Origin: an uncultured Alphaproteobacteria bacterium
GTDB taxonomy: Bacteria; Pseudomonadota; Alphaproteobacteria; JAPULJ01
Direction: 5' to 3'
NCBI GenBank assembly: GCA_964494065.1
Contig: CAZBRE010000001.1
Span: 14,737 to 78,736 of the forward strand
Length of the DNA stretch: 64,000 nucleotides
Shown here: positions 30,068 through 57,030 of the stretch, piece by piece
Position numbering within the stretch: the stretch's first letter is position 1
How the letters are laid out: each line of letters begins with the position of its first letter
Program-made: the position numbers and the translations under genes
Notes under the pieces: model-generated
The model's input: only the letters and a program-made list of their open reading frames with translations
The model's database searches: none
Told to the model about the DNA's origin: nothing

Positions 30068-30768
30068 CAGTGGCGATGTCCCAGATAGACCTCGCGAACG
30101 CGGGCGTCGTTGGCCACGACGTCCATCGTGTCCTCGATCAGGATACTCCCCTGATGGAACACGGTCACCTTGTTCGCGATCATTCGGATGAATTGCATGT
30201 CGTGCTCGACCACGATCAGCGTGGCGGTGCGGTTGATCTCGCGGATCAGCTCGGCGGTGCGCGCGACCTCGTCATGGGTCATGCCGGCGGCCGGCTCGTC
30301 GAGCAGCACCAGCCACGGCTCGGCGGCGATCACCATGCCGAGCTCGACCCATTGGCGCTGGCCGTGGGCGAGCAAACCGACGACGTCGCTTCGGATATCG
30401 CCCAGTTGCAGCCGCTCGATGGTCTCCGCCGTCAGCACCCGCGCGCGGTGGGTCGGATGCCAGCGCCGCGCCGCGAGCCAGATGTTCTCCTCGGCGGTGA
30501 GGCCGTCGAAGATGTTCGGCACCTGCGTCTTGATGCCGACGCCCAGGCGCGCGATCTCATGCGGCTGGCGGCCGTTTACGGTGAAGTCGCGGATCACCAC
30601 GCTGCCCTCGCTCGGCTCGAGCTGGCCGGTCAGGCATTTGAAGAAGGTGCTCTTGCCCGCGCCGTTGGGGCCGATCAGGCAGCGCAGCTCGTTCTCCCAG
30701 AGCGTGAAGTTGACGTGATCGACCGCCGCCACGCCGCCGAAGTGCATGGACAGATCCCGGCTTTCCAC
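30067..30768 (-). CDS. ABC transporter ATP-binding protein (LivG/UrtD-like)
   Basis: 233 aa; Walker [10 protein letters not shown]. Confidence 0.85.
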
Positions 30769-30793
30769 GACGACCTCGCTTCTGATCGAGCTT

Positions 30794-32718: not shown

Positions 32719-32845
32719 GAGGGCTACCTACCCTTTCCTAGGTTCTGTCGAAGTCCGGCGGGAAGAAGCCTCGCCGGGTGGGCGGCGACCCTCCCCCGAG
32801 ATTTGAGGGAGGGCGCACCCGTCAAGCGGCGAAAGCGCCGCGCCG

Positions 32846-34102: not shown

Positions 34103-34154
34103 GGTCCCAACTCCTCGTTCGTGTCTGTTTCTGGCCGTTGCCCGATTTGTGCCG

Positions 34155-35837
34155 TTACGTCTTTTCGCCACCGCTCTCGGAAGCGCCCCCGGTATCCGCG
34201 GCGTCGTCGCTGAACTCGCTCTCGCCGTTGGCGTTGGCCCGCTCGGTGACGGAGGTGGCGAGACCGTCGAGACCGTCGGCGATGTTGAGGCCGACCTGCT
34301 CGCCGAGCTTGCGCACCGCCGGAAGCTGCAGCGCCATCGCGAGTATGCCATCGACGACCTGATTGACCACGGCCCGATCGCCGCCACCATTGGCGGCGCC
34401 GTTCGCATGACCGTTTCCGCCGCCGTTTCCACCGCCGTTGCCGAACCCGGTGATGTGGTTGATGCGGATGCTGTCGATCTTTTCCGCCGGCCGCATCATC
34501 TCGCCGACGACCTCGGGCAGCGTCTTCAGGCGCGCGAGGTCGAGCTTGAGGCCGATGAGCTCCTCGCTCTGCGAATTCTCCGCATCGATCAGCGCCGCCT
34601 CGCCCTGCGCCTTGGCGAGCTGCTCGGTCTTGTTCGCCCGCGCGCGGATCGTGGTCGCATTGGCCTCGGCGTTCGCCATGGCGAGGATGGTGCCGGTCTC
34701 GCTGCGCACGCGGGTGTCGTCGACTTCCGCCTGCTCGGCCGCGCGGATCAGGGCGAGCGCCTTCTCGCGCTCGACGATGGCGGTTTCGCGCGCCGTCTCG
34801 ACCTGCTCTTGGGCCGCGATCTCCTCGGCTTTCGCCTTCTGCGCCGCGGCCTCGGCATGGGCTTCCTCGCTACGCTTGGCGGCGAGCTTGATCGCGACAT
34901 CGTGCTGGACGGTCTCGCTGGCCAGGTTGGCTTCGAGCTCGTTGGCGCGCAGCGAGCGGTCGCGCTCGATCTCGGCGGCGCGCACCTCGCGGTCGCGGTT
35001 GATGCGCGCCTGCTCGCGGCGCTCCTCGGCCGCCGCCTGGCGCTCGGCGACCTCGGCGTCGCTCAGCGCCCGCTGGGTCTCGATCTGCTGGTGCTGCGCG
35101 ATCTGCGCCTCCTGCTCCTCCTGCTCGATGATGAGGCGGCGCTTGGTGGCGTCGAGCTGGCTCTGGCGCACCGAGGTCTCGGCATCGGCCTCGATGGCGG
35201 CGCGCTCTTTCTTGTTGGTGGCGATGATCTCGGCCAGCCGCCGCATGCCGAGGGCATTGAAGGCGTTGTTCTCGTCGAGGGCGTGGAACGGCGTCTGGTC
35301 GAGGCGGGTCAGCGACACGGACTCGAGCACCAGGCCGTCCTGCGCCAGGTTGTCCTCCAGGGTCTGCGAGACCTCGCCGACATACTGGCCGCGGCCGTCC
35401 TGGAGGCTGTCCATGGTGTAACGCGCGGCCACCGCGAGCATCGAGTCGACCAGCCGGCCCTCGAGGATCTCGGCAAGTTCGGCGGCGCGGAACGACTTCC
35501 CGCCGAGCGCCTGGGCCGCCGTCGCCACGCCCTTTTCGGTCGATTGGACGCGCACGTAGAACTCAGCGGAGGCGTCGACGCGCAGGCGGTCGAGGGTGAT
35601 CATCGAGCGCTCGCCGACCCGCTCGATCTCCAGGCGGGTCGTCTTCATGTTGACTTCGGAGACCTTGTGCAGGAACGGCAATGCCAGGCAGCCGCCATCG
35701 AGCACGACCTTCTGGCCGCCGGCGCCGGTTCGCACCAACGCGATCTCGCGCGTCGCCTTCTTGTAGAAGCGATTGAGGAAGAGGATCGCCAGGATGATGG
35801 CGATAACGAGGATGACAATCGCGACGAACCAGACCAA
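34155..35837 (-). CDS. flotillin-like SPFH/band-7 protein (YqiK family)
   Basis: 560 aa; N-terminal TM helix, SPFH domain, long Ala/Glu-rich coiled coil, Gly/Asn-rich tail. Confidence 0.85.
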   Translation of the reverse strand: MVWFVAIVILVIAIILAILFLNRFYKKATREIALVRTGAGGQKVVLDGGCLALPFLHKVSEVNMKTTRLEIERVGERSMITLDRLRVDASAEFYVRVQSTEKGVATAAQALGGKSFRAAELAEILEGRLVDSMLAVAARYTMDSLQDGRGQYVGEVSQTLEDNLAQDGLVLESVSLTRLDQTPFHALDENNAFNALGMRRLAEIIATNKKERAAIEADAETSVRQSQLDATKRRLIIEQEEQEAQIAQHQQIETQRALSDAEVAERQAAAEERREQARINRDREVRAAEIERDRSLRANELEANLASETVQHDVAIKLAAKRSEEAHAEAAAQKAKAEEIAAQEQVETARETAIVEREKALALIRAAEQAEVDDTRVRSETGTILAMANAEANATTIRARANKTEQLAKAQGEAALIDAENSQSEELIGLKLDLARLKTLPEVVGEMMRPAEKIDSIRINHITGFGNGGGNGGGNGHANGAANGGGDRAVVNQVVDGILAMALQLPAVRKLGEQVGLNIADGLDGLATSVTERANANGESEFSDDAADTGGASESGGEKT

Positions 35838-36074
35838 TGCCCCGTCCCTCCGCCGGCCGTCGCGTCGGGGTGCCCCGATTATCGAGGCGCCCGCCGCCCG
35901 CCGGTCTCAGTTCGGCTCCTCGCGCGCCCCGGCCGCTGCCCCGGCCGGACCGCTGAAGCCCTTGTGAAACCAACGTTATCGAATGATTGTTTTCCTCGTC
36001 AAATAAAAACTTTCCAATTCAAGCTTTTCGATTTGGATGAATTCGGCCGGCGGCGACCGTGAAAGCGACAGAAG

Positions 36075-37229
36075 TCAGCGCGCGCCGAGCTCGGTGACGA
36101 TGTCGAAGCGGTTGCCCTTGGCCTCGGCGAGGAAGATCGGCGCCTTGACGCGCCGGTCGGGACCGAACGCAGCGCCGCGGACGCCGCCGAACGAAATCGT
36201 CCGGTCGAGCCGCCGCCAGTCGTCGCCCGGGGCGAGCAGCGCGCGCAGGAAATGCATGCCCTCGTAAAGCGACTCGCCAAGCGCGTTCAACATCGGCGCG
36301 CCGTCGCCGAGATGCCCGTAATAGCGCTCCTTGAAGCCGCCATTGTCGCGCGTGCCCATATTCGCGAAGTAGCCGGCGGCGGCAAACAGCCCGTCGGTAT
36401 GCGCGCTGTCGATGCCGAGAAGAACATTCTCCTCCACGGCGCAGGAAAAGCGCAGGATACGCTCGCTCAAGCCCCGCCGCCCGAAAGCGCGATTGAAGTT
36501 CACGGCGTCCTGGCCGACCAGCGACACCAGCACCGCGTCGGGCTTCAAACCCGCAATCCAGTCGAGCACATCGTCGAATTGCTCGCGGTCGAAGGGCAGA
36601 TAACGCTCCCCCACCACCTCGCCGTCATGCGCCTTGAGGAACTGGCGGGCCAGCGCGTGGCTGCGGTGCGGCCAGACATAGTCGTTGCCCAGCAGCACCC
36701 AGCGCCGCACCCGGTAGCGCTCGCCAAGCCAGCCCATCGCCGGCAGAAGCTGGTCGGCCGGCGTCTCGCCGATCGCATAGACCCCCGGCGTGCGCTCGCC
36801 GCCCTCGTAGAGCGGCGTGTAGACGTATGGAATGACGCCGCCGATGGTGCGCACCAATGACTCGCGCACGGCGCTGATATGCATGCCGACGATGGCGTCG
36901 ATCTCGCCGGTCTCGACCAGGATCGCCGCGCGCTCGGCCGTGTCGTCGGGATCCGCGCCGGCGTCCTCGATGCGCAGCGCCACTTCGAGGCCGAGAATGC
37001 CGCCCGCCTCGTTGATCTCGTGCGCGGCGAGGGTGGCGCAACTCCGGCACGATGGCCCCCAGATGCCCGCCGCACCCTCGGTTGGAATGAAGATCCCGAC
37101 ATTGAGGCGCCGCGCGTCGTGCCGCACGAGCCCCGCGCCGCGCGCGGCCATAACCCCGTGCGCGCCTGCACCGAATGCCTTTGCCGCCAGCAGCCCCTGC
37201 CGCCGTTCCCCGAGGGCTCGTGCCAACAT
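36075..37229 (-). CDS. LivK/Peripla_BP_6-family binding protein (orphan; either periplasmic via a possible Tat signal or an AmiC-like cytoplasmic sensor)
   Basis: Type I PBP fold motifs; N-terminus MLARALGERRQGLLAAKAFGAGAHGVMAA has an RR motif. No permease or ATPase genes adjacent. The start is uncertain; the track ORF extends to 37328. Confidence 0.65.
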   Translation of the reverse strand: MLARALGERRQGLLAAKAFGAGAHGVMAARGAGLVRHDARRLNVGIFIPTEGAAGIWGPSCRSCATLAAHEINEAGGILGLEVALRIEDAGADPDDTAERAAILVETGEIDAIVGMHISAVRESLVRTIGGVIPYVYTPLYEGGERTPGVYAIGETPADQLLPAMGWLGERYRVRRWVLLGNDYVWPHRSHALARQFLKAHDGEVVGERYLPFDREQFDDVLDWIAGLKPDAVLVSLVGQDAVNFNRAFGRRGLSERILRFSCAVEENVLLGIDSAHTDGLFAAAGYFANMGTRDNGGFKERYYGHLGDGAPMLNALGESLYEGMHFLRALLAPGDDWRRLDRTISFGGVRGAAFGPDRRVKAPIFLAEAKGNRFDIVTELGAR

Positions 37230-37369
37230 GTCCCGCAACCCGTTGTTTTCCGGGCTCTCTGGACACAACTGTGCGGGCAGCAAGCGGTGAAAGCAACAAA
37301 AATGCTGCACCTGCGTAATGCAGACCATGGCGCGCAGCGGCCGAATGTTTTCCTCGGCAAATAACTTGT

Positions 37370-37387: not shown

Positions 37388-37432
37388 TTATATGTCGCGG
37401 CGGGAAACGCCAGCCTCAAGAAGGCCATAAAA

Positions 37433-37879
37433 ATGACGGATGAACCGTACGCCGATCAGCTGCCTTACCTCCTTGCCCAGGCAAACCGGCATGTGCACGG
37501 CGACCTCCAGGGCCTGCTCAAGGCGAAGGGGATCCCGGTGGAGCAATGGCGCATCCTGCAGGTCTTGAGCGACCGCCGCGGCCGCTCGATGGGCGAGCTC
37601 GCCAAGGCGGTGCTGATGAACCACCCGGCGCTGACCAAGACCATCGACCGCATGATCATGCGCGCCCTGGTCCACCGCCGCCATGACCCGGAAGACAACC
37701 GCCGCGTGCTCGTCCACATCTCGGAGTTCGGCTCCGACCTGGTGGCGCAGTGCGAGGAGCGGATCGCGGGCTACGAGGATCAGCTCGCCGAACGGCTCGG
37801 TCCCCGCAACGCCGCGCAGCTGCGCAGGCTCCTCCACACCCTGGTTGCCGACGCCAACGCAACGCCGTCGCGCCACTAG
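37433..37879 (+). CDS. MarR family transcriptional regulator
   Basis: 148 aa winged-helix protein (EQWRILQVLSDRRGRSMGELAKAVLMNHPALTKTIDRM). Confidence 0.85.
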   Translation: MTDEPYADQLPYLLAQANRHVHGDLQGLLKAKGIPVEQWRILQVLSDRRGRSMGELAKAVLMNHPALTKTIDRMIMRALVHRRHDPEDNRRVLVHISEFGSDLVAQCEERIAGYEDQLAERLGPRNAAQLRRLLHTLVADANATPSRH

Positions 37880-38001
37880 GTCTGGTTGAGCGGACTGGCG
37901 CCAGACTGGCCAATGCACGCAATTTTATTGCGTTTTTCATGGCCGCCGCCGGAGACGCTTGTCACCACCGTTAATCGCGATACATAGCTGCAACTTGGCG
38001 T

Positions 38002-39237
38002 TTGTTTGAGCGCCGCTTGTTCCGGAAAAAACCGAAAATGTCGTTTGGACGCATAGGCGTTTGGACGGTGGCCGCCGTGGTGCTGATCGCGGGCGGCTAC
38101 GGATTCGTCCGCTGGACCAGCGGCGCGAGTACCGTTCGGGCCGGCCGGGTTCTGCCGCCGGCGCCGGTCACGGTGGCGCGCGTCACGACCGCCGACGTAC
38201 CCGTGAGGCTCAGGGTCGTCGGCACCGTGCAACCGGTCGAGACCGTCGCCATCAAGTCGCGGGTCGACGGCCAGATCGTCAAGGTCCACTTCGCCGAGGG
38301 CCAGATGGTCAAGAAGGGCGATCTGCTCTTCTCGATCGATCCACGGCCCTTCGAGTGGCAGCTGCGCCAGGCCGAGGCCAATCTCGCGCGCGACCGGGCG
38401 TTGCTCGCCAAGGCGCGGGCGGACCTCGAGCGCATTCAGCCGCTGTGGCAGCGCGGCGTGGCGCCGAAGCAGACGTATGACGCGGCGGTCGCCGGCGTCA
38501 ATTCGCTGCTCGCGACCATCCAGGCCGGCCAGGCAACCACCGAGCAGATCAAGCTGCAGATCGAGTTCGCGGCCATCCGCGCGCCGATTGACGGCAAGAC
38601 CGGCGCAGTGCTGATCAACGCCGGCAACCTCGTCAAGGCGAACGATACCGGCGCGCTGGTGGTCATCAACCAGCTGCGGCCGATCGACGTGACCTTCGCC
38701 ATTCCCGAGCGCCATGTCGAAGCGCTGCGCACGGCCAGGCAGGCCGGACCGGTGGCCGTCAACGTCACGCGCCCCGACGAGCCCACGCCCTTCGCCACCG
38801 GCAAGCTCATCTTCGTCAACAACGCCATCGACGCCGCCACCGGCACGATCCAGCTGAAGGCGCGCTATGAGAACACGGACGGCAACCTGGTGCCGGGCCG
38901 CTTCGTCGGCGTGCAGGTGACGCTCGCGGTCCGCCGCAACGCGTTGGTGGTGCCGTCGGAGTCGGTCCAGGTCGGCCAGCGCGGGCGCTACGTCTTCGTC
39001 GTCAAGGCCGACCTCACGGTCGAGCAGCGCATGGTGCGCGACGGCATTTCCGAGGGCGGGCGCACCGTCATCGAGTCGGGCCTCAAGCTCGGCGAGACGG
39101 TGGTGACCGACGGCCAGCTGCGGCTCTTCCCGGGCATCAAGGTGACGCCGCGCCCGCCGGCGACGCGCGGCGGCGCCCGGCCCGGGCCCGCGGTGCGCAA
39201 GACCGGCGGCAGCAGCCTGGCGAAGGACGACCACTGA
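38002..39237 (+). CDS. RND efflux periplasmic adaptor (membrane fusion protein)
   Basis: 411 aa AcrA-like; alternative start at M13 (38038). Confidence 0.85.
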   Translation: MFERRLFRKKPKMSFGRIGVWTVAAVVLIAGGYGFVRWTSGASTVRAGRVLPPAPVTVARVTTADVPVRLRVVGTVQPVETVAIKSRVDGQIVKVHFAEGQMVKKGDLLFSIDPRPFEWQLRQAEANLARDRALLAKARADLERIQPLWQRGVAPKQTYDAAVAGVNSLLATIQAGQATTEQIKLQIEFAAIRAPIDGKTGAVLINAGNLVKANDTGALVVINQLRPIDVTFAIPERHVEALRTARQAGPVAVNVTRPDEPTPFATGKLIFVNNAIDAATGTIQLKARYENTDGNLVPGRFVGVQVTLAVRRNALVVPSESVQVGQRGRYVFVVKADLTVEQRMVRDGISEGGRTVIESGLKLGETVVTDGQLRLFPGIKVTPRPPATRGGARPGPAVRKTGGSSLAKDDH

Positions 39238-42200
39238 TGACCCTGCCGGAGCTCTGCATCCGCCGGCCGGTGATGACGACGTTGCTGATGGCGACGCTGC
39301 TCATCTTCGGCATGATGTCCTACCGCGCACTGCCGGTGAGCGAGCTGCCCAACGTCGACTTCCCGACCATCCTGGTGACCGCCGCCCTGCCCGGCGCCAG
39401 CCCCGAGACCATGGCCGCGACGGTGGCCAAGCCGCTGGAGGCGCAGTTCTCGACCATCGCCTCGGTCGCCTCGATGAACTCCTCTAGCGCCCTCGGCCTG
39501 TCGCAGATCACGCTCCAGTTCACCCTCGACCGCGACATCGACGCGGCCGCCCAGGACGTGCTGGCGGCAATTGCTGCCGCTGGGCGCAACCTGCCCTCGG
39601 GCATGCCGAGCCCGCCGACCATCCGCAAGGTGAACCCGGCCGAGCAGCCCGTGCTCTATCTCGCCATGTCCTCGGCGACGCTGCCGCTCTCCACGGTCGA
39701 CGAATACGCCCAGACGGTCTTCGCCCAGAGCCTCTCGATGGTGCCGGGCGTGGCGCTGGTGCAGGTCTATGGCAGCCAGAAATACGCGCTCCGCGTCCAG
39801 GTCGACCCCGGCAAGCTCGCGGTGCGCGGCATCGGCATCGACGAGGTCGAGCGCGCGGTGCGCGGGGTCAACTCGAACCTGCCGACCGGCACGCTCGACG
39901 GCGCCAAGAAATCGATGACGATCAGGACCACCGGCAAGATTACCGGGGCCGCGACCTACGGCCGGCAGATCGTCGCCTACCGTAACGGCGCGCCGGTACG
40001 CCTGCGCGAGCTCGGCCAGGTGATCGACGGCGTGGAGAATGAGCGCGTGGCGAGCTGGTACAGTGGCAAGCGCGCGATCATCCTGGCGATCCAGCGCCAG
40101 CCCGGCTCGAACACCGTGAAGGTGGTCGGCGACATCAAGGCCTCGATCAACCGCATCAAGCGGCTCCTGCCCGCCTCGGTGCAGTTCAATGTGATCTACG
40201 ACCGCTCGCTCTCGATCAAGGCCTCGATCCACGACGTCCAGTTCACGCTGCTGCTGGCGGCGCTGCTGGTGATCATGGTGATCTTCCTCTTCCTGCGCCG
40301 GCTCTGGGCGACGGTGATCCCGGCAATCGCCCTGCCGCTTTCGGCGATCGGCACCTTCAGCGTGATGGCGATGTTCGGCTTCAGCCTCGACAATCTGTCG
40401 CTGATGGCGCTGACGCTCTCGGTCGGCTTCGTGGTCGACGATGCGATCGTCATGCTGGAGAACATCGTCCGCCACATCGAAAAGGGCGAGACGCCGCTTC
40501 AGGCGGCGCTCAAGGGCTCGCGCGAGATCGGCTTCACCATCATCTCGATGACCATCTCGCTCGCCGCGGTGTTCATCCCGGTGGTGTTCCTGGGCGGCGT
40601 GGTCGGGCGTCTCTTGAACGAGTTCGCAGTGACCATCGTCGCGGCGATCCTGGTCTCGGGCTTCGTCTCGCTGACCCTGACGCCGATGATGTGCGCCCGC
40701 CTGCTGAAGGACGACCGCGAGGTCAAGCACGGCGCACTCTACCGCGCGATCGAGCGCGGCTTCGATGCGATGCTGCGCGGCTACGAGCGCAGCCTGCGTT
40801 GGTGCGTCAACCACGGGCCGGTGATGCTGCTGGTCTTCGCGCTCTCGGTGGCGGCGACGGTGCATCTCTTCCGCGTCACCCCGCGCGACTTCCTGCCGAG
40901 CGAGGATACCGGGCGCATCGTCGCTTTCACTGCGGGCGGCCAGGACATCTCCTTCGCGGCGATGAAGGTCCACCAGCAGCGCATCGTGGGCATTGTCAGC
41001 CGCAATCCCAACGTCGAGGCCACCATGTCGTCGGTCGGCGCCGGCGGCCCGCGCGCGACCTCCAACTCGGGCACCATCTTCATCCGCCTGAAGCCGCGCG
41101 ATCAGCGCACGGCGCATGTCGACCAGATCATGCAGCAGCTCCGCCGCCAGGTCGCGAACGTGCCGGGCATCCGCGTCTTCTTCCAGAACCCGCCGCCGGT
41201 CCGCTTCGGCGCCTACATCACCAAGGGCAGCTACCAGTATGTGATGGAGAGCCTCGACATCGAGGAGCTCTACCGCTCGGCGACGGCGATGCAGCTCGCC
41301 TTGCGGCGCCTGCCCGGCCTGCAGGACGTCTCCAGCGACATGGATATCTCCAGCCCGCAGGCGGTGGTGTCGATCGACCGCAGCCAGGCGGCCGCGCTGG
41401 GTGTCTCGCCCGAGCAGATCGAAAGCGCCCTTGCCAGCGCCTTCGGCACGCGCCAGATCTCGACGATCTCGACCTCGTCCAACCAGTACCAGGTGATCCT
41501 GGAGGTGCGCCCGCAGGACCGCGAGAACCTCGACGCGCTGTCGCAATTGTATGTGCGCTCGAGCGCGGGGCCGCTGATCCCGCTCTCGGCCGTGGTGACG
41601 ATCAAGCAGGGCGTCGGGCCGCTGACCGTGAACCACCGCGGTCAGCTCCCGTCGGTGACACTCTCCTTCAACCTGCGGCCAGGGGTCTCGGTCGGCACGG
41701 CGCTCGCCAGCGTGCGCACGCTGGAGCGCCAGATCCGCCTGCCCGCCACCGTCGCCACCAGCTTCCAGGGCGCCGCCGAGGCCTTCGCCAGCTCGACGGA
41801 AACCCTCGGTATCCTGATCATCCTGGCGCTGGTCGTCGTCTACATCGTGCTCGGCATCCTCTACGAGAGCTTCATCCACCCGCTGACCATCCTCTCGGGC
41901 CTGCCCTCGGCGAGCTTCGGCGCGCTCTTGATACTGCAGATCTTCAACGTGCCGCTCAGCCTGTATGCCTTCGTCGGCGTGATCATGCTGATCGGCATCG
42001 TCAAGAAGAACGCGATCATGATGATCGACTTCGCGCTGGCCCGCCAACGCGCCGACAATCTGCCGGCGAACGAGGCCATCTTCGAAGCCTGCCTCGTGCG
42101 CTTCCGCCCGATCATGATGACGACGATGGCCGCGCTCCTGGGCACGCTGCCGATCGCGATCGCCTTCGGCGCGGGCGCGGAGGCGCGCCAGCCGCTCGGT

Positions 42201-42338
42201 CTCGCGGTCGTCGGCGGGCTGCTCGTCTCGCAGCTCCTGACGCTCTATCTGACGCCGGTGATCTACGTCTATCTCGACCGCCTGTCGCATTGGCGGCCAT
42301 TTCGCCGGGGCGGCGCGGTAACGGTCCCGGCCGAATAG
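39237..42338 (+). CDS. RND efflux transporter permease (AcrB/HAE1 family)
   Basis: 1033 aa; the start overlaps the adaptor stop (ATGA). Confidence 0.95.
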   Translation: MTLPELCIRRPVMTTLLMATLLIFGMMSYRALPVSELPNVDFPTILVTAALPGASPETMAATVAKPLEAQFSTIASVASMNSSSALGLSQITLQFTLDRDIDAAAQDVLAAIAAAGRNLPSGMPSPPTIRKVNPAEQPVLYLAMSSATLPLSTVDEYAQTVFAQSLSMVPGVALVQVYGSQKYALRVQVDPGKLAVRGIGIDEVERAVRGVNSNLPTGTLDGAKKSMTIRTTGKITGAATYGRQIVAYRNGAPVRLRELGQVIDGVENERVASWYSGKRAIILAIQRQPGSNTVKVVGDIKASINRIKRLLPASVQFNVIYDRSLSIKASIHDVQFTLLLAALLVIMVIFLFLRRLWATVIPAIALPLSAIGTFSVMAMFGFSLDNLSLMALTLSVGFVVDDAIVMLENIVRHIEKGETPLQAALKGSREIGFTIISMTISLAAVFIPVVFLGGVVGRLLNEFAVTIVAAILVSGFVSLTLTPMMCARLLKDDREVKHGALYRAIERGFDAMLRGYERSLRWCVNHGPVMLLVFALSVAATVHLFRVTPRDFLPSEDTGRIVAFTAGGQDISFAAMKVHQQRIVGIVSRNPNVEATMSSVGAGGPRATSNSGTIFIRLKPRDQRTAHVDQIMQQLRRQVANVPGIRVFFQNPPPVRFGAYITKGSYQYVMESLDIEELYRSATAMQLALRRLPGLQDVSSDMDISSPQAVVSIDRSQAAALGVSPEQIESALASAFGTRQISTISTSSNQYQVILEVRPQDRENLDALSQLYVRSSAGPLIPLSAVVTIKQGVGPLTVNHRGQLPSVTLSFNLRPGVSVGTALASVRTLERQIRLPATVATSFQGAAEAFASSTETLGILIILALVVVYIVLGILYESFIHPLTILSGLPSASFGALLILQIFNVPLSLYAFVGVIMLIGIVKKNAIMMIDFALARQRADNLPANEAIFEACLVRFRPIMMTTMAALLGTLPIAIAFGAGAEARQPLGLAVVGGLLVSQLLTLYLTPVIYVYLDRLSHWRPFRRGGAVTVPAE

Positions 42339-42413
42339 CGATCTATCCTCGGAAATTGGCTCTACGGATAAGGGCTCTGCGGATAACGGCGGGGTCGCGA
42401 TGGACTGTGCCGT

Positions 42414-43544
42414 TTGTCTGCATGTCCGACTTCGAATCTCCGATCGGGCCGAAGACCTGATACATTGCCGATTGTGATCCAAGCCAAAAGACATACAGAC
42501 GACCCCGCCTCGATATATTTCCCAGACGTGACCGTGCTGCTGGGCGATCCGCGGATTGCCGACGGCTCCAAGCGCGAAGGCGCCTTCCACGAGGAGGACT
42601 TCGCGACGCGCGACGCGATGAAGGCGGCGTTCGAGAGCCTGCCCGGCTATTCCTTCCGATATCTCGACGACCACACGACGATCCTTGAGGACCTGCGCGC
42701 GGCGCCGCCGCAGTTCGTCATCAACTTCTGCGACACGGGCTTCCGCAACGACCCCTATCGGGAGCTCAACCTGCCGGCCTATCTGGAAATGCTCGGCGTG
42801 CCCTATTCGGGCGCGCCGCCGGCGGCGATGGTGCTCGCCTGGGACAAGTCGATCGTGCGCGCGATTGCGCTCGCCTCGGGCATCGACGTGCCCGACGAGG
42901 TCACTGTGGCGCCCGACGACGACGTCGAGGCGTGCCTGCCCGAGCGCTATCCGGCCTTCGTCAAGCCGGCCTGTGCCGACGGCAGCGTCGGGATCACGGT
43001 CGATGCGATCGTCAAGGACCGGGCCGCGGCGGAGAAACGTGTGCGCGCGGTGCAGACCGAGCTGCCGGGCCGGGCGATCCTGGTGCAGGAGTTCCTCTCG
43101 GGCACCGAATACGGCGTCGGCGTGATCGGCAACCCGGATAGCGGCTTCACGGTGCTGCCGCCGCTCGAAGTCGATTACGGGAGCCTCGATCCCGAGCTGC
43201 CGCGCCTCCTCGGCTTCGAGTCGAAGGCGATGCCCGACTCGCCCTATTGGTCCGACATCCATTTCCGCGAGGCGCGCTTGTCGGCCGCGGATCGCGCGAA
43301 AATCGAGGCCGCGGCGACGACGATGTTCGAGCGCCTGAACCTCCGCGACTACGGCCGCTTCGACTTCCGCGCCGATGCCGACGGCCGGATCAAGTTCATG
43401 GAATGCAACCCCAACCCGGCCTGGTCGAACGACGGTAAGCTCGCCTACATGGCGGGCTTCGCCGGCATCGAGTACCGCGACTTTCTACGCCTGATCCTGG
43501 AGACCGCGCAGGCGCGCGCGGCGGCGGAGCTGGGAAAAGCCTAA
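42414..43544 (+). CDS. ATP-grasp protein, D-alanine-D-alanine ligase-like
   Basis: Ddl-like layout (VTVLLGD...SKREG...; EYGVGVIGNP; FDFRADADGRIKFMECNPNP). The start is either ATG 42414 or in-frame GTG 42474. Confidence 0.7.
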   Translation: MSACPTSNLRSGRRPDTLPIVIQAKRHTDDPASIYFPDVTVLLGDPRIADGSKREGAFHEEDFATRDAMKAAFESLPGYSFRYLDDHTTILEDLRAAPPQFVINFCDTGFRNDPYRELNLPAYLEMLGVPYSGAPPAAMVLAWDKSIVRAIALASGIDVPDEVTVAPDDDVEACLPERYPAFVKPACADGSVGITVDAIVKDRAAAEKRVRAVQTELPGRAILVQEFLSGTEYGVGVIGNPDSGFTVLPPLEVDYGSLDPELPRLLGFESKAMPDSPYWSDIHFREARLSAADRAKIEAAATTMFERLNLRDYGRFDFRADADGRIKFMECNPNPAWSNDGKLAYMAGFAGIEYRDFLRLILETAQARAAAELGKA

Positions 43545-43550
43545 GCCGCG

Positions 43551-45641
43551 CTAGACGAGATCGCGCGGGATCGTTTCGGTCCATTCGCGGGCGAAGACCT
43601 CGCTCAGTCCCTCGTTGGCCGTAATCTTCGCGGTGACGATGAAGTCGGTCTTGGTGGCGGTGAGCTCGATGCGGCCGCGCAGCTCGGGTGCCCAGGCGCC
43701 GCGGCGGAGCAGCGCATGGGCGACGATCTCGCCCGAGGCGGTCAGCGGACTGGCTTCGCCGATGCGATATTGCTGGAGCAGCGCGAAGCCCGCCTCGAGG
43801 TCGATATCCTCCAGATGGATGAGCGCCGCGCCGTCGAACTCGCCGCCGTCGTCATAGATCCGGTAGGTCACGTCGCCTGTCAGAAGGTCGCGCTCGAAGG
43901 TGCGGCGGAGTGTGGAGTCGCGGAGCACCGTGCCGCTGTTCGAGGGGCCGGTCTCGGGCGGCGGGAAGGCGGGCAAGTCGTCGTCCTCGGCGCGCGGCGC
44001 GCGCACCGGCAGGACCACGCTGCTGGCGCCGGTATGAACGCCGAGCGTGACCCATTCCGGCGTCGGCCAGACGATCGGCCAGTAGGCGGTCGAAATCGCC
44101 ACGCGCACCCGGTTGCCGGCCGCAAAGCGGTGGGCGATGTCGTTGAGGCGGATCGTCGCCTCGGTGCGCTGGCCGGGCACGAGCGGCTCCGGATGCTCGT
44201 GGCTCTCGCGGTGGCTGAGGTTGAGCACGCCGTAGCTGACCCGCGCCGAGGTGCCGTCGGGGAAGACGTCGTTCAGGCGCACGATCACGTGGGCGACCGG
44301 CCGGTTCGATTCGAAGACCAGATGCAGTTCGGGCGCGCCCATGATCTCCAGCGGCTCGTCGAGGGCTTCGCTGTCGAAGACGAGCGAGCGGCCGTCGTCG
44401 GGGCGCTGGTCGATCGGCATCTCGCCCTCGCTGCCCATGGCGCACCAGCTTCCCGCGGTGATGCCGGTGGCGGGCGGCGAAACGACCTCCAGGAGCGCCT
44501 CTTCCGCGGCGCCAGGGATCAGCAGTCCGGCGGCGTCGAGGGCGAGCGCGTGGGGCGTGACGTTGTCCGACGGCCAGCCGGGCTCGGCGATCCAGCGACC
44601 GGGCCGCTCGTCGTATTGTGGCTGCGGGGCGAGGCTGTCTTGCATCCAGACACGGTAGAGGGGCTCGTCCATGATGCCGGTGTCGACGCCTTTGAGCCAA
44701 TGGTCCCACCAGCGCAGCGCTTCCTGGAGGAAGCCGATCGCCGGCGCCGGCACGCCGTTGTGCGGGAAGACATGCGCCCAGGGGCCGATGAGCCCCTTGC
44801 GCGGAACGTCGAGCCCTTCGAGCAGGCGCGGCACGGCGTTCGAATAGCCGTCGGCCCAGCCGCCGATCGCATAGACCGGGCAGGTAACCGCGGAATAGTC
44901 CTCGCAGACCGAACCGTGCTTCCAGAAGTCGTCGCGGCGCTGGTGGCCGAGCCAGTGGGCCGGGAACAGCACGGCGTTTTCCAGCCGCTCGAGCCACATC
45001 TCGCGCCAGCGGTCGCCGACGATGTCGGGGTCGGGCGGCAGCAGGTGGTACATGAAGAAGGCGCTGCCCCAGATCAGGTTCTCGTTGAGCAGGCAGCCGC
45101 CCATGTAGTGCGCGTCGTCGGCATAGCGGTCGTCGGCGGCGCAAAGCGTGATGATGGCCTTCAAGGCCGGCGGCTGGCGCGCGGCCACCTGCAGTGAATT
45201 GAAGCCGCCCCAGGAGATGCCGAACATGCCGACGGCGCCGCTGCACCAGGGCTGGGCGGCGAGCCATTCGATGACGGCCGTCGCGTCGTCGTGCTCGGCC
45301 TCGGTGTATTCGTCGAGGGTCAGGCCGTCGCTGTCGCCCGAGCCGCGGATGTCGACCCGCACGCTCGCATAGCCGTGGCCGGCGAAGTAATGGTGCATCG
45401 GCTCGTCGCGGGCGCGCATGAAGTCGCGCTTGCGGTAGGGCAGGAACTCAAGCAGCGCCGGGACCGGATCGGCCTCGGCGTCCTCGGGCAGCCAGATGCG
45501 CGCCGCGAGCTGCACGCCGTCGGGCATCGGGATCCAGGTGTTCTCGATGACACGGACGGGACGCGGGAACTCGGTGACGATCTTCAAGCGCCGCTCCGGT
45601 CCGTCGTCACGAGGCCCGCCGGGCGCCGTCGCGGCGTCCAC
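43551..45641 (-). CDS. CocE/NonD family hydrolase (S15 X-Pro dipeptidyl-peptidase-like alpha/beta hydrolase)
   Basis: Motifs RDGVRL-like (MPDGVQLAARIWLP), GISWGG nucleophile region, and a C-terminal beta-sandwich. The start is uncertain: GTG 45641, or ATG 45749 would overlap the upstream gene. Confidence 0.8.
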   Translation of the reverse strand: MDAATAPGGPRDDGPERRLKIVTEFPRPVRVIENTWIPMPDGVQLAARIWLPEDAEADPVPALLEFLPYRKRDFMRARDEPMHHYFAGHGYASVRVDIRGSGDSDGLTLDEYTEAEHDDATAVIEWLAAQPWCSGAVGMFGISWGGFNSLQVAARQPPALKAIITLCAADDRYADDAHYMGGCLLNENLIWGSAFFMYHLLPPDPDIVGDRWREMWLERLENAVLFPAHWLGHQRRDDFWKHGSVCEDYSAVTCPVYAIGGWADGYSNAVPRLLEGLDVPRKGLIGPWAHVFPHNGVPAPAIGFLQEALRWWDHWLKGVDTGIMDEPLYRVWMQDSLAPQPQYDERPGRWIAEPGWPSDNVTPHALALDAAGLLIPGAAEEALLEVVSPPATGITAGSWCAMGSEGEMPIDQRPDDGRSLVFDSEALDEPLEIMGAPELHLVFESNRPVAHVIVRLNDVFPDGTSARVSYGVLNLSHRESHEHPEPLVPGQRTEATIRLNDIAHRFAAGNRVRVAISTAYWPIVWPTPEWVTLGVHTGASSVVLPVRAPRAEDDDLPAFPPPETGPSNSGTVLRDSTLRRTFERDLLTGDVTYRIYDDGGEFDGAALIHLEDIDLEAGFALLQQYRIGEASPLTASGEIVAHALLRRGAWAPELRGRIELTATKTDFIVTAKITANEGLSEVFAREWTETIPRDLV

Positions 45642-46599
45642 GCGGTGTGCGGGCGTGCTCGATCGACCAGAAGCGCAAGGCCAGGCGATCGCGCACGTCG
45701 AAGCCGACATCGAGGTCCCAGCAGTTGACGATCGCGAGACGGAAGCCACCCGGCGGCATGGCGTGGGTCTCGGCCGGCCGGTCGGCGTGGAAGGTGATCT
45801 GGATGCTGGTGACCTCGTCGTACTCGTCGCACAATCTTGGAACCTGGGTGCGGTCGATCATATAGTCGATGCCGTGGGCGCCGAAGAGGACGACGCTGTA
45901 GCCGGTGCGCCGGTCGGTGTCGTCGAACGCCCAGACGCCCTCGCTGTAGAGCCGCACCACCGCCTCGATCCAGCCGGCCCCGTAGAGGTCGGGCCACTGG
46001 TCGCTGAAGCGGAGATGGCATTCAATGATGCGCCCGCCGATGGTCTCGAAATTGACCATGCCGGAATAGCCCTTGAGGTTCTTCAAGAGCCAGGCGCCGC
46101 AATAGTCCTCGATGTTGGGCCGCGCCTCGGCGTGGATCGTCCAGTAGTCGAACATGCCGCCCTTGAGCGGCTCGCCGGTGACGTGGCGCCACCAGCGCGC
46201 CTCGCCGTCGACCACCGCGACGTCGCTCGAGACGTGCTCGCCTTCCAGCAGCTCGCTCCACATATGGCCCGGCGCCTGGCGTCGGCGCCACTGCTCGAGC
46301 GAGCGGATGACGCGACTGCCCGTACCCATGCCGCGCATGTTGTAGATAGGCTTGGAGAAGACCGGGAATTCCGGCGGGGTAAGGCCGTGCGGCGCGCATT
46401 GGATGCCCTGGCTCTCGGCGACGAGGAGCTTGTTGTAGACCCAGCGCTGAGCCGGATAGAGCTGATACGCATCACCGTCATCCGTTGGCACGACGATGGT
46501 ATCGGGACAAGGCACGCCCTCGAAATACTGCTCGCGCCAGGGATCGGTTTCGTTGATCGGCATTCGAGGAACCACCTTCGGCGGACGTCGCGGAGCCAA
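45607..46599 (-). CDS. hypothetical protein, possibly ATP-grasp fold
   Basis: 330 aa. Weak ATP-grasp-like features (FSKPIYNMRGMGTGSRV; GEHVSSDVAVVDGE; MVNFETIGGRIIECHLRFSD). No confident family assignment. Confidence 0.4.
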   Translation of the reverse strand: MAPRRPPKVVPRMPINETDPWREQYFEGVPCPDTIVVPTDDGDAYQLYPAQRWVYNKLLVAESQGIQCAPHGLTPPEFPVFSKPIYNMRGMGTGSRVIRSLEQWRRRQAPGHMWSELLEGEHVSSDVAVVDGEARWWRHVTGEPLKGGMFDYWTIHAEARPNIEDYCGAWLLKNLKGYSGMVNFETIGGRIIECHLRFSDQWPDLYGAGWIEAVVRLYSEGVWAFDDTDRRTGYSVVLFGAHGIDYMIDRTQVPRLCDEYDEVTSIQITFHADRPAETHAMPPGGFRLAIVNCWDLDVGFDVRDRLALRFWSIEHARTPRGRRDGARRAS

Positions 46600-46923
46600 G
46601 AGTACAAAGAGTACAATATGCCGCCGCCCTCTTCACCATCCTCCAAAGGGTATGAAGCTATTGCGGCAGGTGAAAGACAGCCGGTGCGAGGCTGTCCTTA
46701 TCGCGCGACCGAAACGCCAGCAGCGGTCGGAGATACTGCACTGTCTCCGTCAGGGCTTCGGGATCCGGTTCCACAATTCCATCATCCGTGGGCCGACCCA
46801 AGATGGACGCGCAGCGCACTGTGCAGCATGCGATCCGATGAGCGTGACGCGGGCGAGAAGGCGATCGCCGCCTTCCGCCCGGGCCGGCGAGCACGCCCGT
46901 CCCGCCCAGCCCACCGCGTGTCG

Positions 46924-48177
46924 CTAGCCGCGCTTGCGCCAGCCGCGCATCGGCCAAATCGGCTTGCTGACCGCCGCGCTCTTCGGCAGGACCACCAATG
47001 ATTTGCCGCCGCGGTTCTGTACCCCAGAATTCTTCGTATCCGGGTTCTGGCCTTTCTCGTTGAACTTGATGCCGGGACCCGTGGAGACGTTGTCCTTGAT
47101 GTCGGTCGCCTTGAGGGCCGCCTGCAGCGCGGTGTTCTTGGTCGAGCCCGCGCGGCGGAAGGCGTCGGACGCGATCAGCAGCGCCTCGAATGTGTGCGAA
47201 TGGTTGGGGCCCATATTTCGGTCGGGAAACCGCTTGGCGAACTCGGCGGCGAGCGCCTGGGACATCGGCTTTTTGGCATCGTGCCACGGCACCAGGCTGA
47301 TGACGTCGTCGCCATACTTGCCGGTCGCGCGCATATAGGCATCCTCGTACCAGCCGGGCCCGGTGGAGAGGACGCCCATCGGCTCGTAGCGCTGCTTGAC
47401 CATCTCCTTGGTAAGCGCAATCGCGTCGTTGAGACGGCTCACCATCCATACCGCCTCGGCGCGGCTGGCCTTGGCCTTGCGGATTTCGCTCGCGAAGGCG
47501 CGGCCGTAAGGATCGTAGGAGACCTTCTCTACGATCTTGTAGGGCATCTTGAATTTGGGAGCCAAGGCGAACAGCGCGCCGGCGAGGCTGGTGCCGAACG
47601 TGTCGTTCACATGCAGCAGGGCCACGGTCTTGGGTGTGTGGCCGCTGATCTGGAAGAGCTCCTTCTGATTGAGGAACGCGTCCTTGACCACCATCGGGCC
47701 GGTCGGGAAGTTGCGAAAGACCCACTTGTAGCCGAGCTCCGTCAGCTTGGGCACGGCGGCGATATTGACGACCAGAGGAATGTTGTGCTGCTCGCAGACC
47801 TGCGCCGCGGCCATGGTCGCGCCCGAATCGAAGCAACCGATGATGAGCTGCGCCCCGTCATTGATCAGGCTCGCCGCGCGCACGCGCGCGACGTCGACCT
47901 TGGTCTCCGTATCGGCATGCATCAGCTCGAGTTCGGGAAAGCCCTTGGCCTTCAGCAACGGGAGACCGGCGTCGACGCCGCGCAGGCAATCAAGGCCGAT
48001 CTGGCCTTGCGGCCCCGAGCGGGGCAGCAAGATGCCGACTTTGAGCTTGCTGGCCGCGAGGCCATGTCTGAGGGGCACCGCGGCCGCAACCGCGCTGGCG
48101 GCAACGATCGAGCCAAAGCGCCTCCGGCTGATCCGCCGGCCGAGGTGATCGAAGTAAACCTTTGTCCGTCCTGCCAT
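46924..48177 (-). CDS. ABC transporter substrate-binding protein (Peripla_BP_6 family), Tat-type signal
   Basis: Start at Met 48177 (MAGRTKVYFDHLGRRISRRRFGSIVAASAVAAAVPLRHGLA). Orphan: no permease or ATPase genes adjacent. Confidence 0.8.
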   Translation of the reverse strand: MAGRTKVYFDHLGRRISRRRFGSIVAASAVAAAVPLRHGLAASKLKVGILLPRSGPQGQIGLDCLRGVDAGLPLLKAKGFPELELMHADTETKVDVARVRAASLINDGAQLIIGCFDSGATMAAAQVCEQHNIPLVVNIAAVPKLTELGYKWVFRNFPTGPMVVKDAFLNQKELFQISGHTPKTVALLHVNDTFGTSLAGALFALAPKFKMPYKIVEKVSYDPYGRAFASEIRKAKASRAEAVWMVSRLNDAIALTKEMVKQRYEPMGVLSTGPGWYEDAYMRATGKYGDDVISLVPWHDAKKPMSQALAAEFAKRFPDRNMGPNHSHTFEALLIASDAFRRAGSTKNTALQAALKATDIKDNVSTGPGIKFNEKGQNPDTKNSGVQNRGGKSLVVLPKSAAVSKPIWPMRGWRKRG

Positions 48178-48494
48178 GTTTTCGTCCTCCCGCCCTCGGG
48201 CTTGGTTCATTAGTCGTCTACCGTACTATTCGCTTCTCGCAGCCTATACCAAGCCCGATATTTCAGAAACCTGCCGATGAGCGCCGGTAAGCGGATACGG
48301 TCGTGGGCGCAGGGCGGCGGATGCGCGCGCCGGCGTCGATGTCAGTTCCGGTGACGGGCCGGCGAAGCGGCTCGAGGTGGCCGAGGTGGCCGCGTCCTGG
48401 GTGCACGGCCGGATCGTGCAGCCCAATGGCGGCCTCGTCTGAGCGCGGGCCGCGATTGCGCTGACCGGCCCATCGAAGGATAACAACCACCGTA

Positions 48495-49988: not shown

Positions 49989-50113
49989 GGCAACGGTCGC
50001 GCCGACGATGTCTGTGATCAGTGGCGTTGCTTACCGGCTGGTCTGTCGAAAAAGCGTCTCCCGGCGGCGGGGCACAACAACGCTGGCGCGGTCGCTCCTG
50101 GCCGACGATCCGA

Positions 50114-51013
50114 TCACTTGATCGGCGGCACCGGCAGGCGCGCCTCGCCGGACAGCATGGCGAAGGTCTTCTCCAGCGAGTACCAGGGGCCGTCGACATC
50201 GTCCGCCGGCGCGGGCTCGTCCGCCTCGTGGCGCACATAGTCGCCGACCAGCGCCTCGGTCACGCCGAACTGGACGTCGGTATCGATGTAGGGCGCGCCC
50301 TTCACATAGACCTGCGAGATCAATGTCTTGTGCCCCGGCTTGTAGACGAGGAAGTGGATATGGGCGGGCCGCATGTTGTGCCGGCCCTGGGCGGCGAGGA
50401 GCTCGCCCGTCGGCCCGTCGATCGGGATCGGATAGCCCGCCGGCAGCACGGTCCGGAAACCGAAGCGGCCTTGCGTGTCCGTGGTGAACTTGCCGCGCAG
50501 GTTCATCTCGGCCTGCTTTTCGTCCTGCTGCTCGTAGAGGCCTTCGGGCGAGGAATGCCAGACATCGACCTCTGCCCCCGCGATCGGCGCGCCGTCCTGG
50601 TCGACCACGCGGGCGCTTACGAAGAGCGGGTCGCCGGGCGTCGGCGAGCGCACGATCGAAGCGCCGTTCTCGGTCGGCGGCGAGTGCATGCGCCAGAACG
50701 GGCCCAGCAGGTTCGCCGTCGTCTCGACCCGCTCGTGCCCGGCGTTGTTGTTGAGCAGGCAGATCAGCATCGAAAAGCCCAGCGAGCCGGACATCAGCAC
50801 CGCCTCGTTGTGGCGCTCGTTGGTGTGCTGGCCGAGCGCGACGACATAGCCGATGGCCTTCTGGAACTCCGCTTCGGTCAGCTTCACCTCGCGGGCGAAG
50901 TCGTGGAGATGGCGAACCAGCGCGGACATGATCTCCTTGAAGCGCGGATCCGTCGCCCCTTCGAGCTCGCCCAGCACCGCTTGGGTGACGTCCGCTTCGG
51001 TCTTGATAATCAT
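50114..51013 (-). CDS. intradiol ring-cleavage dioxygenase (catechol/hydroxyquinol 1,2-dioxygenase-like)
   Basis: Start at Met 51013 (MIIKTEADV...). Intradiol dioxygenase core with HIHF and the conserved Tyr and His ligand regions. Confidence 0.75.
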   Translation of the reverse strand: MIIKTEADVTQAVLGELEGATDPRFKEIMSALVRHLHDFAREVKLTEAEFQKAIGYVVALGQHTNERHNEAVLMSGSLGFSMLICLLNNNAGHERVETTANLLGPFWRMHSPPTENGASIVRSPTPGDPLFVSARVVDQDGAPIAGAEVDVWHSSPEGLYEQQDEKQAEMNLRGKFTTDTQGRFGFRTVLPAGYPIPIDGPTGELLAAQGRHNMRPAHIHFLVYKPGHKTLISQVYVKGAPYIDTDVQFGVTEALVGDYVRHEADEPAPADDVDGPWYSLEKTFAMLSGEARLPVPPIK

Positions 51014-51123
51014 CTTAGGTTCTCCAGGCTCTGGCAGCCGCCACACAATGCCTTCCCCCGGCCTTCCCGGGCAAGCGCGGGCGGTTCCGGCTGCTAGGGG
51101 CGGCCGGAGGCATCTGATATAGT

Positions 51124-55778: not shown

Positions 55779-55878
55779 CGGCCGGCCCCCCGCGAGCGGG
55801 CATGCCGGCGCGGCGTAGCGCGGCCGCCCCCCTGAAATGGGCTGCGGCCGCGCAGTCCGTCAGTGGACAATTCGGGCG

Positions 55879-56850: not shown

Positions 56851-57030
56851 GGTTCGTCCTCCCTGTAAGCTGCGGGTGATCCCCGCGTTTATCGTTGTCT
56901 CCAGGCCAATGCTACGGGTTTGGGGGCGGTTAGCGCAAGAAAGGCAGGCCGTCACGCGCCAGCCGGGCCGGCGTGCCATTGAATACTGCCGGGCGCCACC
57001 GCGTTTTTTTCTCAGAGGACGAGTCGGACG

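Follow-up and report, generated by a model that had tools for sequence, protein, structure and literature searches.

What does a bacterium do with a Ddl-like (D-alanine--D-alanine ligase-like) enzyme, a peptidase-family hydrolase and a protein without a name if their genes are kept side by side? This question is raised by positions 42414..46599 of a 64,000-nucleotide stretch of DNA (the window) from an uncultured Alphaproteobacteria bacterium (contig CAZBRE010000001.1). An earlier note, made from the letters of the window, had placed three open reading frames (ORFs) here, and all of them are present: a Ddl-like ATP-grasp ligase on the forward strand and, converging on it, a CocE/NonD hydrolase preceded by a hypothetical protein, which we call hyp. 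They are real genes in DNA of high GC content (64-70%), where real genes are each shadowed by long spurious ORFs. We find that the three genes are a unit inherited together and that hyp, judged by its modelled fold, is an ATP-grasp enzyme of a new family. The novelty lies in this family and in an undescribed but conventional-looking ligase-hydrolase module, which is not categorically new; CocE/NonD, to which the hydrolase belongs, and the Ddl fold family, of which the Ddl-like protein is a member, were already known. Nothing yet points to unusual chemistry.

The unnamed protein hyp

The hyp gene lies on the reverse strand within a maximal ORF of 45607..46599, from which the earlier note had read 330 residues. 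We place its start at ATG 46563 (MPINETDPW), a beginning common to 27/27 aligned homologs; the gene then covers 45607..46563 (-) and the protein counts 318 residues. Sequence searches give it no name. No Pfam or NCBIfam match is found at E<=0.01 and ten distant relatives yield no Pfam match at E<=0.1; the Pfam copy used (2025) holds no model for the family. PDB searches with hyp (phmmer and two profiles) reveal no ATP-grasp chain, PADLOC gives no match, PHROGs returns one family only, of unknown function, and a plasmid search finds no homolog. Aligned to the neighbouring Ddl-like family with hhalign, hyp reaches a probability of 0.9%.

The modelled fold of hyp has the central domain, the flexible B domain and the C-terminal domain of ATP-grasp enzymes, and resembles that of PurD and the L-amino-acid ligases. 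The comparison score is 19.6 against PurD (275 of the 318 hyp residues aligned to the 423-residue PurD), 18.7 against the L-amino-acid ligase BL00235, 18.2 against PurT, 16-17 against PurK, 16.5 against RizA, 15.9 against BacD and 15.0 against PylC. For Ddl it is about 10-12, and for RimK, TTL and the graspetide ligases 8-9.5. The hypothetical protein, in which weak ATP-grasp features had been noticed, has an ATP-grasp fold, and the concern that it might have no nucleotide-binding fold at all falls away. An N-terminal (pre-ATP-grasp) domain is absent from hyp: before the first core strand there are ~55 residues, mostly helical and highly conserved. The N-terminal segment of hyp is invariant (DPWRxQYF, PTxDxDA). 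We regard hyp, a member of the superfamily by fold only, as an ATP-grasp enzyme of a new family without N-terminal domain, belonging to none of the described ATP-grasp families.

Conservation within the family singles out a number of residues. In a 39-member alignment P67, D114, G120, G168, E173 and R185 are invariant, and K45, K71, N75, S112, N171 and H183, among others, are at least 90% conserved. Candidate catalytic residues are K71 in 'PVFSKP', the G-rich loop 'RGMGxGS', 'GEHxSxD', N171/E173 and E181-x-H183-x-R185. From its motif position (PVFSKP, then RGMGxGS), K71 would be the ATP-binding lysine, and N171/E173 together with E181-x-H183-x-R185 would form the metal/phosphate motif, with His for the canonical Asn. 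This mapping follows motif position and one weak hhalign segment, not a residue-level structural superposition. For that segment we used residues 187-316 of E. coli PurD (sequence confirmed against 1gso): hyp 'LEGEHVSSDVAVVDGE' aligns weakly with PurD 'LDGEEASFIVMVDGE' (E 0.047), and the pairing of hyp 'ELLEGEHVSSDVAVVDGE' with PurD 'EFLDGEEASFIVMVDGE' is likewise weak (E 0.047). In our own reading 'IIECHLRFSD' of hyp resembles 'VIEFNCRFGD' of PurD.

After residue 300 the protein ends in a disordered tail (~301-318, encoded by 45607..45660 (-)) with a predicted local distance difference test (pLDDT) value <50. With few exceptions module-type homologs share its basic character (in 27 homologs, a median net charge of +5 over ~18 residues), although its sequence is not conserved. 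The distant paralogs that were read (e.g. P0244, P0247) end before it. Its DNA is also the approach to the hydrolase start codon.

The number of relatives is large: 5390 homologs are found at E<=1e-3, and those listed are ~313-362 residues long (most 313-340) and all unnamed or 'hypothetical'. The 27 aligned homologs share 62-91% identity with the hyp of the window and have 130 invariant columns. As a result ~5,400 unannotated database proteins can now be called ATP-grasp enzymes. A profile search extends the range to 1256 hyp-related clusters at 50% identity, which are unstudied and only one of which holds module-type proteins (the P0241-P0390 set). Members of the remaining clusters measure ~290-320 residues and share WVYNK, PVFSKPIxNLxGMG, GEHxSxD, YTGMxNxExIGxxIIExHLR and MPxGGxR; four such distant paralogs followed up by contig are stand-alone genes in unrelated contexts. 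Distant relatives are seen as well in 47 Synechococcus cyanophage records (S-T4, ACG-2014f; phrog_3577). The ACG-2014f copy (KJ019123.1 55397..56005, locus L095) is truncated to ~200 residues and sits among hypothetical genes, just upstream of baseplate genes. Neither this setting nor those of the four paralogs give a clue to function.

The hydrolase and the Ddl-like ligase

The assignment of the neighbouring ORF (43551..45749 (-)) to the CocE/NonD (S15) hydrolases is borne out by TIGR00976 (CocE_NonD; 249.2 bits against a cut-off of 66.3), Peptidase_S15 (PF02129, 3e-67) and PepX_C (PF08530, 1e-39). The closest solved structure is cocaine esterase, matched over the whole length with an E-value of 4e-32. 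The CocE stretches GVSYLG, AGWYDGF and GPWSH, which we take to carry Ser117, Asp259 and His287, stand opposite GISWGG, GGWADGY and GPWAH in the hydrolase; because of this alignment, the Ser-Asp-His triad should be intact and the enzyme catalytically active. At its C-terminus the protein is ~100 residues longer than CocE, and the extra part has no known domain. Only its C-terminal half (residues 267-511, E 2e-16) can be aligned to the alpha-amino-acid ester hydrolases (AEH). In these enzymes an acidic cluster near the catalytic Asp binds the alpha-amino group of the substrate. In the hydrolase the catalytic Asp stands in D-G-Y-S with no acidic pair following; the AEH alignment covers residues 267-511.

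As start of the hydrolase, GTG 45641 or position 45749 had been considered. Most likely it is neither, and we favour TTG 45587, which yields a gene of 43551..45587 (-) and a protein of 678 residues. A 100% identical product has been called at 678 residues in a metagenome, most of the 120 best homologs measure 677-678 residues, and the three closest loci have TTG, TTG and ATG at the aligned position. It is separated from hyp by a spacer of 19 nt (45588..45606 (-)) that carries a GGAG 6 nt before the start; GGAG and start codon are kept in L004, L005 and L046. Given this start, the overlap between hyp and the hydrolase that the earlier note reported is an artefact of maximal ORF extension, and the real layout is a 19-nt gap after the hyp stop, which we consider an operon junction. 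Elsewhere, too, the two genes lie close: many of the candidate starts for the hydrolase either share 4 or 8 nt with the end of hyp or follow its stop within ~60 nt. We read the pair as co-transcribed, often with translational coupling.

On the other strand the Ddl-like gene occupies a maximal ORF of 42414..43544 (+) and most likely starts at GTG 42474 (42474..43544 (+), 356 residues), as judged from a 99%-identical called protein of 356 residues and from the N-termini of homologs. That it encodes a Ddl-like ATP-grasp ligase is supported by a match to Pfam Dala_Dala_lig_C (7e-18) and by the full three-domain Ddl fold, C-terminal domain included. Equivalents of K215, R255, D257, E270 and N272 of DdlB, which serve ATP and Mg binding and phosphate transfer, are kept; K251, R295, D297, E310 and N312 of the Ddl-like protein are invariant in 20 homologs.

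The substrate side of the enzyme differs from DdlB, where D-Ala is bound by what we take to be Glu15, Ser150, Tyr216, Ser281 and Leu282. Comparison with 1iov/2dln shows that, of the 'KY' pair of DdlB, the Lys is retained and Tyr216 is replaced by Ala. The Ser/Leu carboxylate-binding stretch 'GMTSHSLV' of DdlB reads 'AWSNDGKL' here, and in the N-terminal part the GGxSxE motif of Ddl is replaced, the invariant motifs being GDPRxxDxxK and NFCDTGFRN. The best NCBIfam Ddl model (NF002378) gives 91.6 bits against a cut-off of 243, and the protein is far below the cut-offs of all 25 listed Ddl/Van models. With substrate residues replaced and scores below the curated cut-offs we reject the identity as D-Ala-D-Ala ligase. 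The comparison indicates an enzyme that has the Ddl-family fold but acts on another substrate. Its name in the databases, 'D-alanine--D-alanine ligase', is unsafe; if the automatic name were not corrected, it would suggest a second cell-wall ligase.

One alphaproteobacterial lineage (L022, L035, L041, L047) has its Ddl-like protein fused to an N-terminal S-adenosylmethionine-dependent methyltransferase domain. In L022 (12726-14900 (-), 724 residues) Methyltransf_25 is found at residues 156-250 and the Ddl-like part at 514-698, and the fused gene is separated from the hydrolase by an oligopeptidase-B-like S9 peptidase. The fusion hints that product or substrate can be methylated.

An N-terminal hydrophobic stretch, looked for in the sequences, is present in none of the three proteins. 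For this reason all three, and hence their chemistry, are presumably cytoplasmic.

A shared gene unit and its possible role

How far the arrangement extends was assessed with a scan of one genome per species (GTDB representatives), in which relatives of hyp are encoded at no fewer than 585 places. Carriers are found in the Alphaproteobacteria (Kiloniellaceae, Rhodovibrionaceae, Oceanibacterium, Minwuia), the Gammaproteobacteria (Woeseia, Nitrococcus), Nitrospira, Planctomycetes, Acidobacteriota, Binatia and Gemmatimonadales; Nitrosococcus wardiae was added through its hydrolase homolog. Cultured carriers are Nitrococcus mobilis Nb-231, Nitrosococcus wardiae and Oceanibacterium hippocampi.

Linkage was counted over 83 loci, 19 of which cannot be judged for the Ddl-like gene because the contig ends. 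The hydrolase follows hyp on the same strand in 71/80 loci with room for it. In 40 loci the Ddl-like gene sits next to the hydrolase and converges on it; in 3 it adjoins hyp in divergent orientation, and in another 11 it is found within a few kb. Of the 40 convergent pairs, 18 have overlapping ends (4-47 nt), 17 have gaps of 1-23 nt and 5 have gaps of 82-231 nt. Thus in 35/40 pairs, from several phyla, the 3' ends overlap or are separated by at most 23 nt; each transcription unit must therefore extend into the other. The window itself has a spacer of 6 nt between the two stop codons (43545..43550, read from the sequence) rather than the 7 nt given before. No terminator-like site is found at this junction, and a promoter/terminator scan is empty at the junctions. 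Neither this spacer of 6 nt nor the close junctions of the other loci leave room for a terminator, which suggests transcriptional interference or antisense coupling.

The genes also diverge in step. Where all three genes are complete (44 loci), their matrices of pairwise identity are correlated with r 0.76-0.84, a value reached in 0/999 Mantel permutations. Mean pairwise identity is 67% for hyp (minimum 58%), 61% for the hydrolase and 55% for the Ddl-like protein; across phyla hyp identity is 58-95%. Hence the co-occurrence outside this genome on which the proposed cluster depended is found in many phyla, with correlated matrices. As it recurs across phyla, the arrangement is far beyond chance, and the three genes are a unit inherited together. 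Two loci possibly represent decay states of the module: in a Rhodospirillales metagenome-assembled genome (MAG; L085:9036-11029) the hydrolase is split over two frames (frameshift or assembly error) and the Ddl-like gene is missing, and in a Nitrospiraceae MAG (L066:8496-8696) hyp is followed by a 67-residue, remnant-like match to the hydrolase C-terminus.

Nothing else travels with the unit. The flanks of all genomes inspected differ, and in a set of 286 flanking ORFs even the commonest Pfam families have no more than 4 members: LysR regulators 4, TPR 4, gamma-glutamyltranspeptidase 3, S9 peptidase 3 (in one lineage), MS_channel 2 and Na_H_Exchanger 2. Clustering of the ORFs of the 83 loci returns the three genes only, plus antisense artefacts of high-GC DNA, and no small ORF that could encode a precursor peptide is conserved beside the module. 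We conclude that the module has no conserved companion, be it a transporter, a regulator, a precursor peptide or a further enzyme, and therefore argue that the substrates are ordinary cytoplasmic metabolites.

What the earlier note said about the pairing of amide-forming ligases with a peptidase-family hydrolase, none with an assignable substrate, stands; its small-peptide or conjugate product is still conjecture. Enzymes of the ATP-grasp type turn a carboxylate into an activated acyl-phosphate, which is then linked to a nucleophile, in most cases an amine (PMC6920838). Since two ATP-grasp enzymes and a serine hydrolase are kept together and alone, our preferred reading is ATP-dependent assembly of a small amide-linked compound combined with its trimming, release or degradation, to which we would give an even chance. 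The module would be self-contained, with two ADP-forming carboxylate-amine ligases and one cytoplasmic serine hydrolase. Each ligase would activate a carboxylate as acyl-phosphate and join it to an amine, and jointly they would build the compound from common cytoplasmic metabolites, for example a di- or tripeptide-like molecule or an amino-acid conjugate, which the hydrolase would trim, release or degrade. With opposed transcription units and no space for a terminator, the Ddl-like step and the hyp-hydrolase pair may be controlled separately or antagonistically. A small peptide or amino-acid conjugate as product, and a hydrolase that breaks it down instead of helping to build it, are our inference.

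Several points weigh against this make-and-trim reading. Ligase activity is read from fold and motifs only, and hyp has His for Asn in the E-x-N metal motif and lacks the domain that normally helps to bind the nucleophile; on both counts it may not be a conventional ligase. A ligase next to a hydrolase of its own product would run a futile cycle unless regulated, and no regulator or regulatory RNA is found at the module (Rfam, flanking ORFs). The Ddl-like gene is absent despite room in 10/64 judgeable loci, 6 of which are also without hydrolase; as the distant paralogs stand alone too, hyp can therefore work without the other two genes. Finally, the correlation of the matrices is in part shared species phylogeny.

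The absence of a nucleophile-side domain could also be explained by a different division of labour, the main rival reading, which we consider unlikely. Here hyp would only phosphorylate the carboxylate and the S15 serine would take the acyl group and pass it to an acceptor, so that the 'hydrolase' would degrade nothing and would instead supply a ligase with its condensing or transferase half. The small size of hyp compared to PurD would fit, as would its being in the tightest pair of the unit, with many starts overlapping its stop, and its unusual conservation, which is expected of a protein with an obligate partner. Moreover, S15 alpha-amino-acid-ester acyltransferases combine peptidase and transferase activity and make dipeptides from activated acyl donors (PMC6920838). 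However, no hyp-S15 fusion exists among the homologs listed, hyp paralogs and some orthologs have no S15 neighbour, and the S15 protein is nearer to CocE, along its whole length, than to the ester hydrolases, to which its C-terminal part aligns. The widest form of this idea, in which hyp is the ATP-dependent activating half of a two-protein machine with an S15 acyl-transferase and makes, with the Ddl-like enzyme, an undiscovered amide (possibly a stress solute) in at least 8 phyla, is improbable as well. A stress role is quite unlikely too if stated as a compatible-solute module, where the ligases make a dipeptide-type osmolyte like N-acetylglutaminylglutamine amide (NAGGN) and the hydrolase removes it after an osmotic down-shift. 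Marine or halophilic organisms are numerous among the carriers (Nitrococcus mobilis, Nitrosococcus wardiae, Woeseia, Kiloniellaceae, Rhodovibrionaceae, Oceanibacterium, Thermohalobaculum, marine-sand MAGs), opposed transcription units would suit a make-or-break switch, and N. mobilis has BCCT/HSP20 and MscS/MscK neighbours, N. wardiae NfeD and Na+/H+-TrkA. The 286 flanking ORFs show no such enrichment, though, MscS-like genes are near the module in 4/94 and Na/H-TrkA in 3/94 loci, the module is present in soil and freshwater lineages (Binatia, Stellaceae, Undibacter), and the known NAGGN genes, a GNAT-ATP-grasp fusion and an amidotransferase, differ from the genes here.

We strongly doubt that the module serves salvage or catabolism, with the S15 enzyme freeing amino acids or dipeptides from imported or cell-wall peptides and the ligases re-using the pieces (e.g. 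recycling of D-amino acids or peptidoglycan peptides). The Ddl fold with its automatic names, the X-Pro dipeptidyl peptidases among S15 relatives, the S9 oligopeptidase-B-like peptidase between hydrolase and Ddl-like gene in one alphaproteobacterial lineage and the gamma-glutamyltranspeptidase neighbours in 3 loci can be cited in favour. They are met by the replaced substrate-site residues and family scores far below cut-offs, by the apparently cytoplasmic location of all three proteins, read from their sequences, and by the lack of any conserved link to mur/fts genes, transporters or peptide uptake among the flanking ORFs. Very doubtful is also the tailing of a macromolecule: a protein or another polymer would receive amino acids from one of the ATP-grasp enzymes or from both, as with RimK or tubulin-tyrosine ligase, and the resulting tail would be trimmed by the S15 enzyme. 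The very high conservation of hyp (130 invariant columns) and a basic disordered C-terminus that could bind an acidic macromolecule agree with it, but no conserved small ORF, carrier protein or target gene is seen beside the module. That the genes are chance neighbours without shared function is effectively refuted. In its favour, the flanks vary throughout and hyp stands alone in some genomes, whereas the same order and orientation in 40 loci of several phyla, the 14 more with adjacent or nearby genes, the correlated divergence and the overlapping or nearly touching junctions leave almost no room for it.

If our preferred reading of assembly and trimming is correct, the module is an apparently widespread piece of small-molecule metabolism. 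Being compact, free of accessory genes and present in cultured nitrifiers and marine heterotrophs, it can be tested by expression of three genes.

Surroundings and known systems

In the window the unit is bordered by a HlyD/AcrB resistance-nodulation-division (RND) pair (38002..42338) and a Peripla_BP_6 binding protein (46924..48210). Both are present as the earlier note described them; neither is part of the unit. Only the two closest relatives retain the RND gene beside the Ddl-like gene, and none retains the binding protein. Upstream of hyp there is an intergenic region of 360 nt (46564..46923 (-)), which presumably holds the promoter of the hyp-hydrolase operon. A promoter scan finds no sigma-70-like site in it, a k-mer comparison of the upstream regions of 84 loci no shared motif, and Rfam no riboswitch or leader, neither in the whole window nor in this region even at E<=5. 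An ORF of 1424 residues (38988..43262 (-)) lies antisense to the AcrB gene and to the greater part of the Ddl-like gene; we take it to be a high-GC artefact and no gene.

Elsewhere the setting varies. In N. mobilis Nb-231 (CH672427.1, L094) the module has a BCCT transporter with HSP20 on one side and an MscS/MscK-type channel on the other, and in N. wardiae (CP038033.1, ~480-485 kb, L093) it adjoins NfeD and a Na+/H+ exchanger-TrkA protein. The BCCT, MscK, Na/H-TrkA, NfeD and HSP20 neighbours recur in at most 4/94 loci, and a tblastn search of these loci places the MscS-like (4 loci) and Na/H-TrkA genes (3 loci) several kb away.

Further along the window, 27476..37328 contains a branched-chain-amino-acid-type ATP-binding cassette (ABC) uptake cluster with Peripla_BP_6 at 32846..34432 and 36075..37328 and a permease at 30794..32539. 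Its 863-residue ORF 27476..30067 (-) combines ABC ATPase and Amidase domains (a fusion or two merged genes), and the cluster may serve the uptake and hydrolysis of amides or amino acids. Other ORFs have no Pfam match: 50021..51097 (+, 358 residues) and 37388..37918 (-, 176 residues), which have no NCBIfam match either, 34101..36062 (+, 653 residues) and 55837..56868 (+, 343 residues).

Comparison with described enzymes sets the two ligases apart. Hyp shares 14% identity with PurD, has no N-terminal (phosphoribosylamine-side) domain and carries His in place of the Asn of E-x-N; as PurD, the glycinamide ribonucleotide (GAR) synthetase, it was rejected given the absence of a Pfam GARS match, empty PDB profile searches and no purine context. 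The L-amino-acid ligases (BL00235, RizA, BacD/YwfE, PylC) are proteins of 350-470 residues with an N-terminal domain and 9-18% identity to hyp; the known ones belong to antibiotic or pyrrolysine clusters, whereas hyp is found in a three-gene unit across phyla. From DdlA/B and VanA the Ddl-like protein differs in substrate residues, N-terminal motifs and the lack of a cell-wall gene context. Cyanophycin synthetase, an ATP-grasp enzyme fused to a Mur-ligase-like domain, was discarded for both ligases, which are single ATP-grasp proteins; cyanophycin synthase matches the Ddl-like protein with E 6.5e-4 over 100 residues only.

Whole pathways were compared as well. A graspetide system, a type of peptide made by ribosomes and modified after translation (RiPP), has a RimK-like macrocyclase and a neighbouring precursor-peptide gene, a combination that the module does not show. 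In the mycosporine pathway the ATP-grasp enzyme MysC and the Ddl-like MysD stand beside a sugar-phosphate cyclase and an O-methyltransferase. The synthesis of mycosporine-like amino acids is set apart by these neighbours, as cyclase and O-methyltransferase are not among the recurrent neighbours in the 286 flanking ORFs.

The hydrolase shares with CocE/NonD the domain order (S15 alpha/beta-hydrolase, then PepX_C) and the triad stretches. It is always coupled to an ATP-grasp gene. To our knowledge, such coupling has not been described for CocE, NonD or PepX, and the literature searched contains no report of a cluster that unites ATP-grasp and CocE/NonD enzymes. AEH and the alpha-amino-acid ester acyltransferases (AET) are of the same peptidase family, even though only the C-terminal half of the hydrolase aligns to them. 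For these S15 enzymes hydrolase and aminolysis (peptide-forming) activity have been reported together (PMC6920838), and the transferase reading is therefore chemically plausible.

The module has none of the domains of the glutathionylspermidine and NAGGN families (CHAP amidase, GNAT fusion, amidotransferase). The logic of these systems, glutathionylspermidine synthetase/amidase and Ngg/AsnO, is nevertheless that of the module: the ATP-grasp enzyme that synthesises an amide is accompanied by one that hydrolyses or completes the product, and the products are small cytoplasmic amides in stress physiology.

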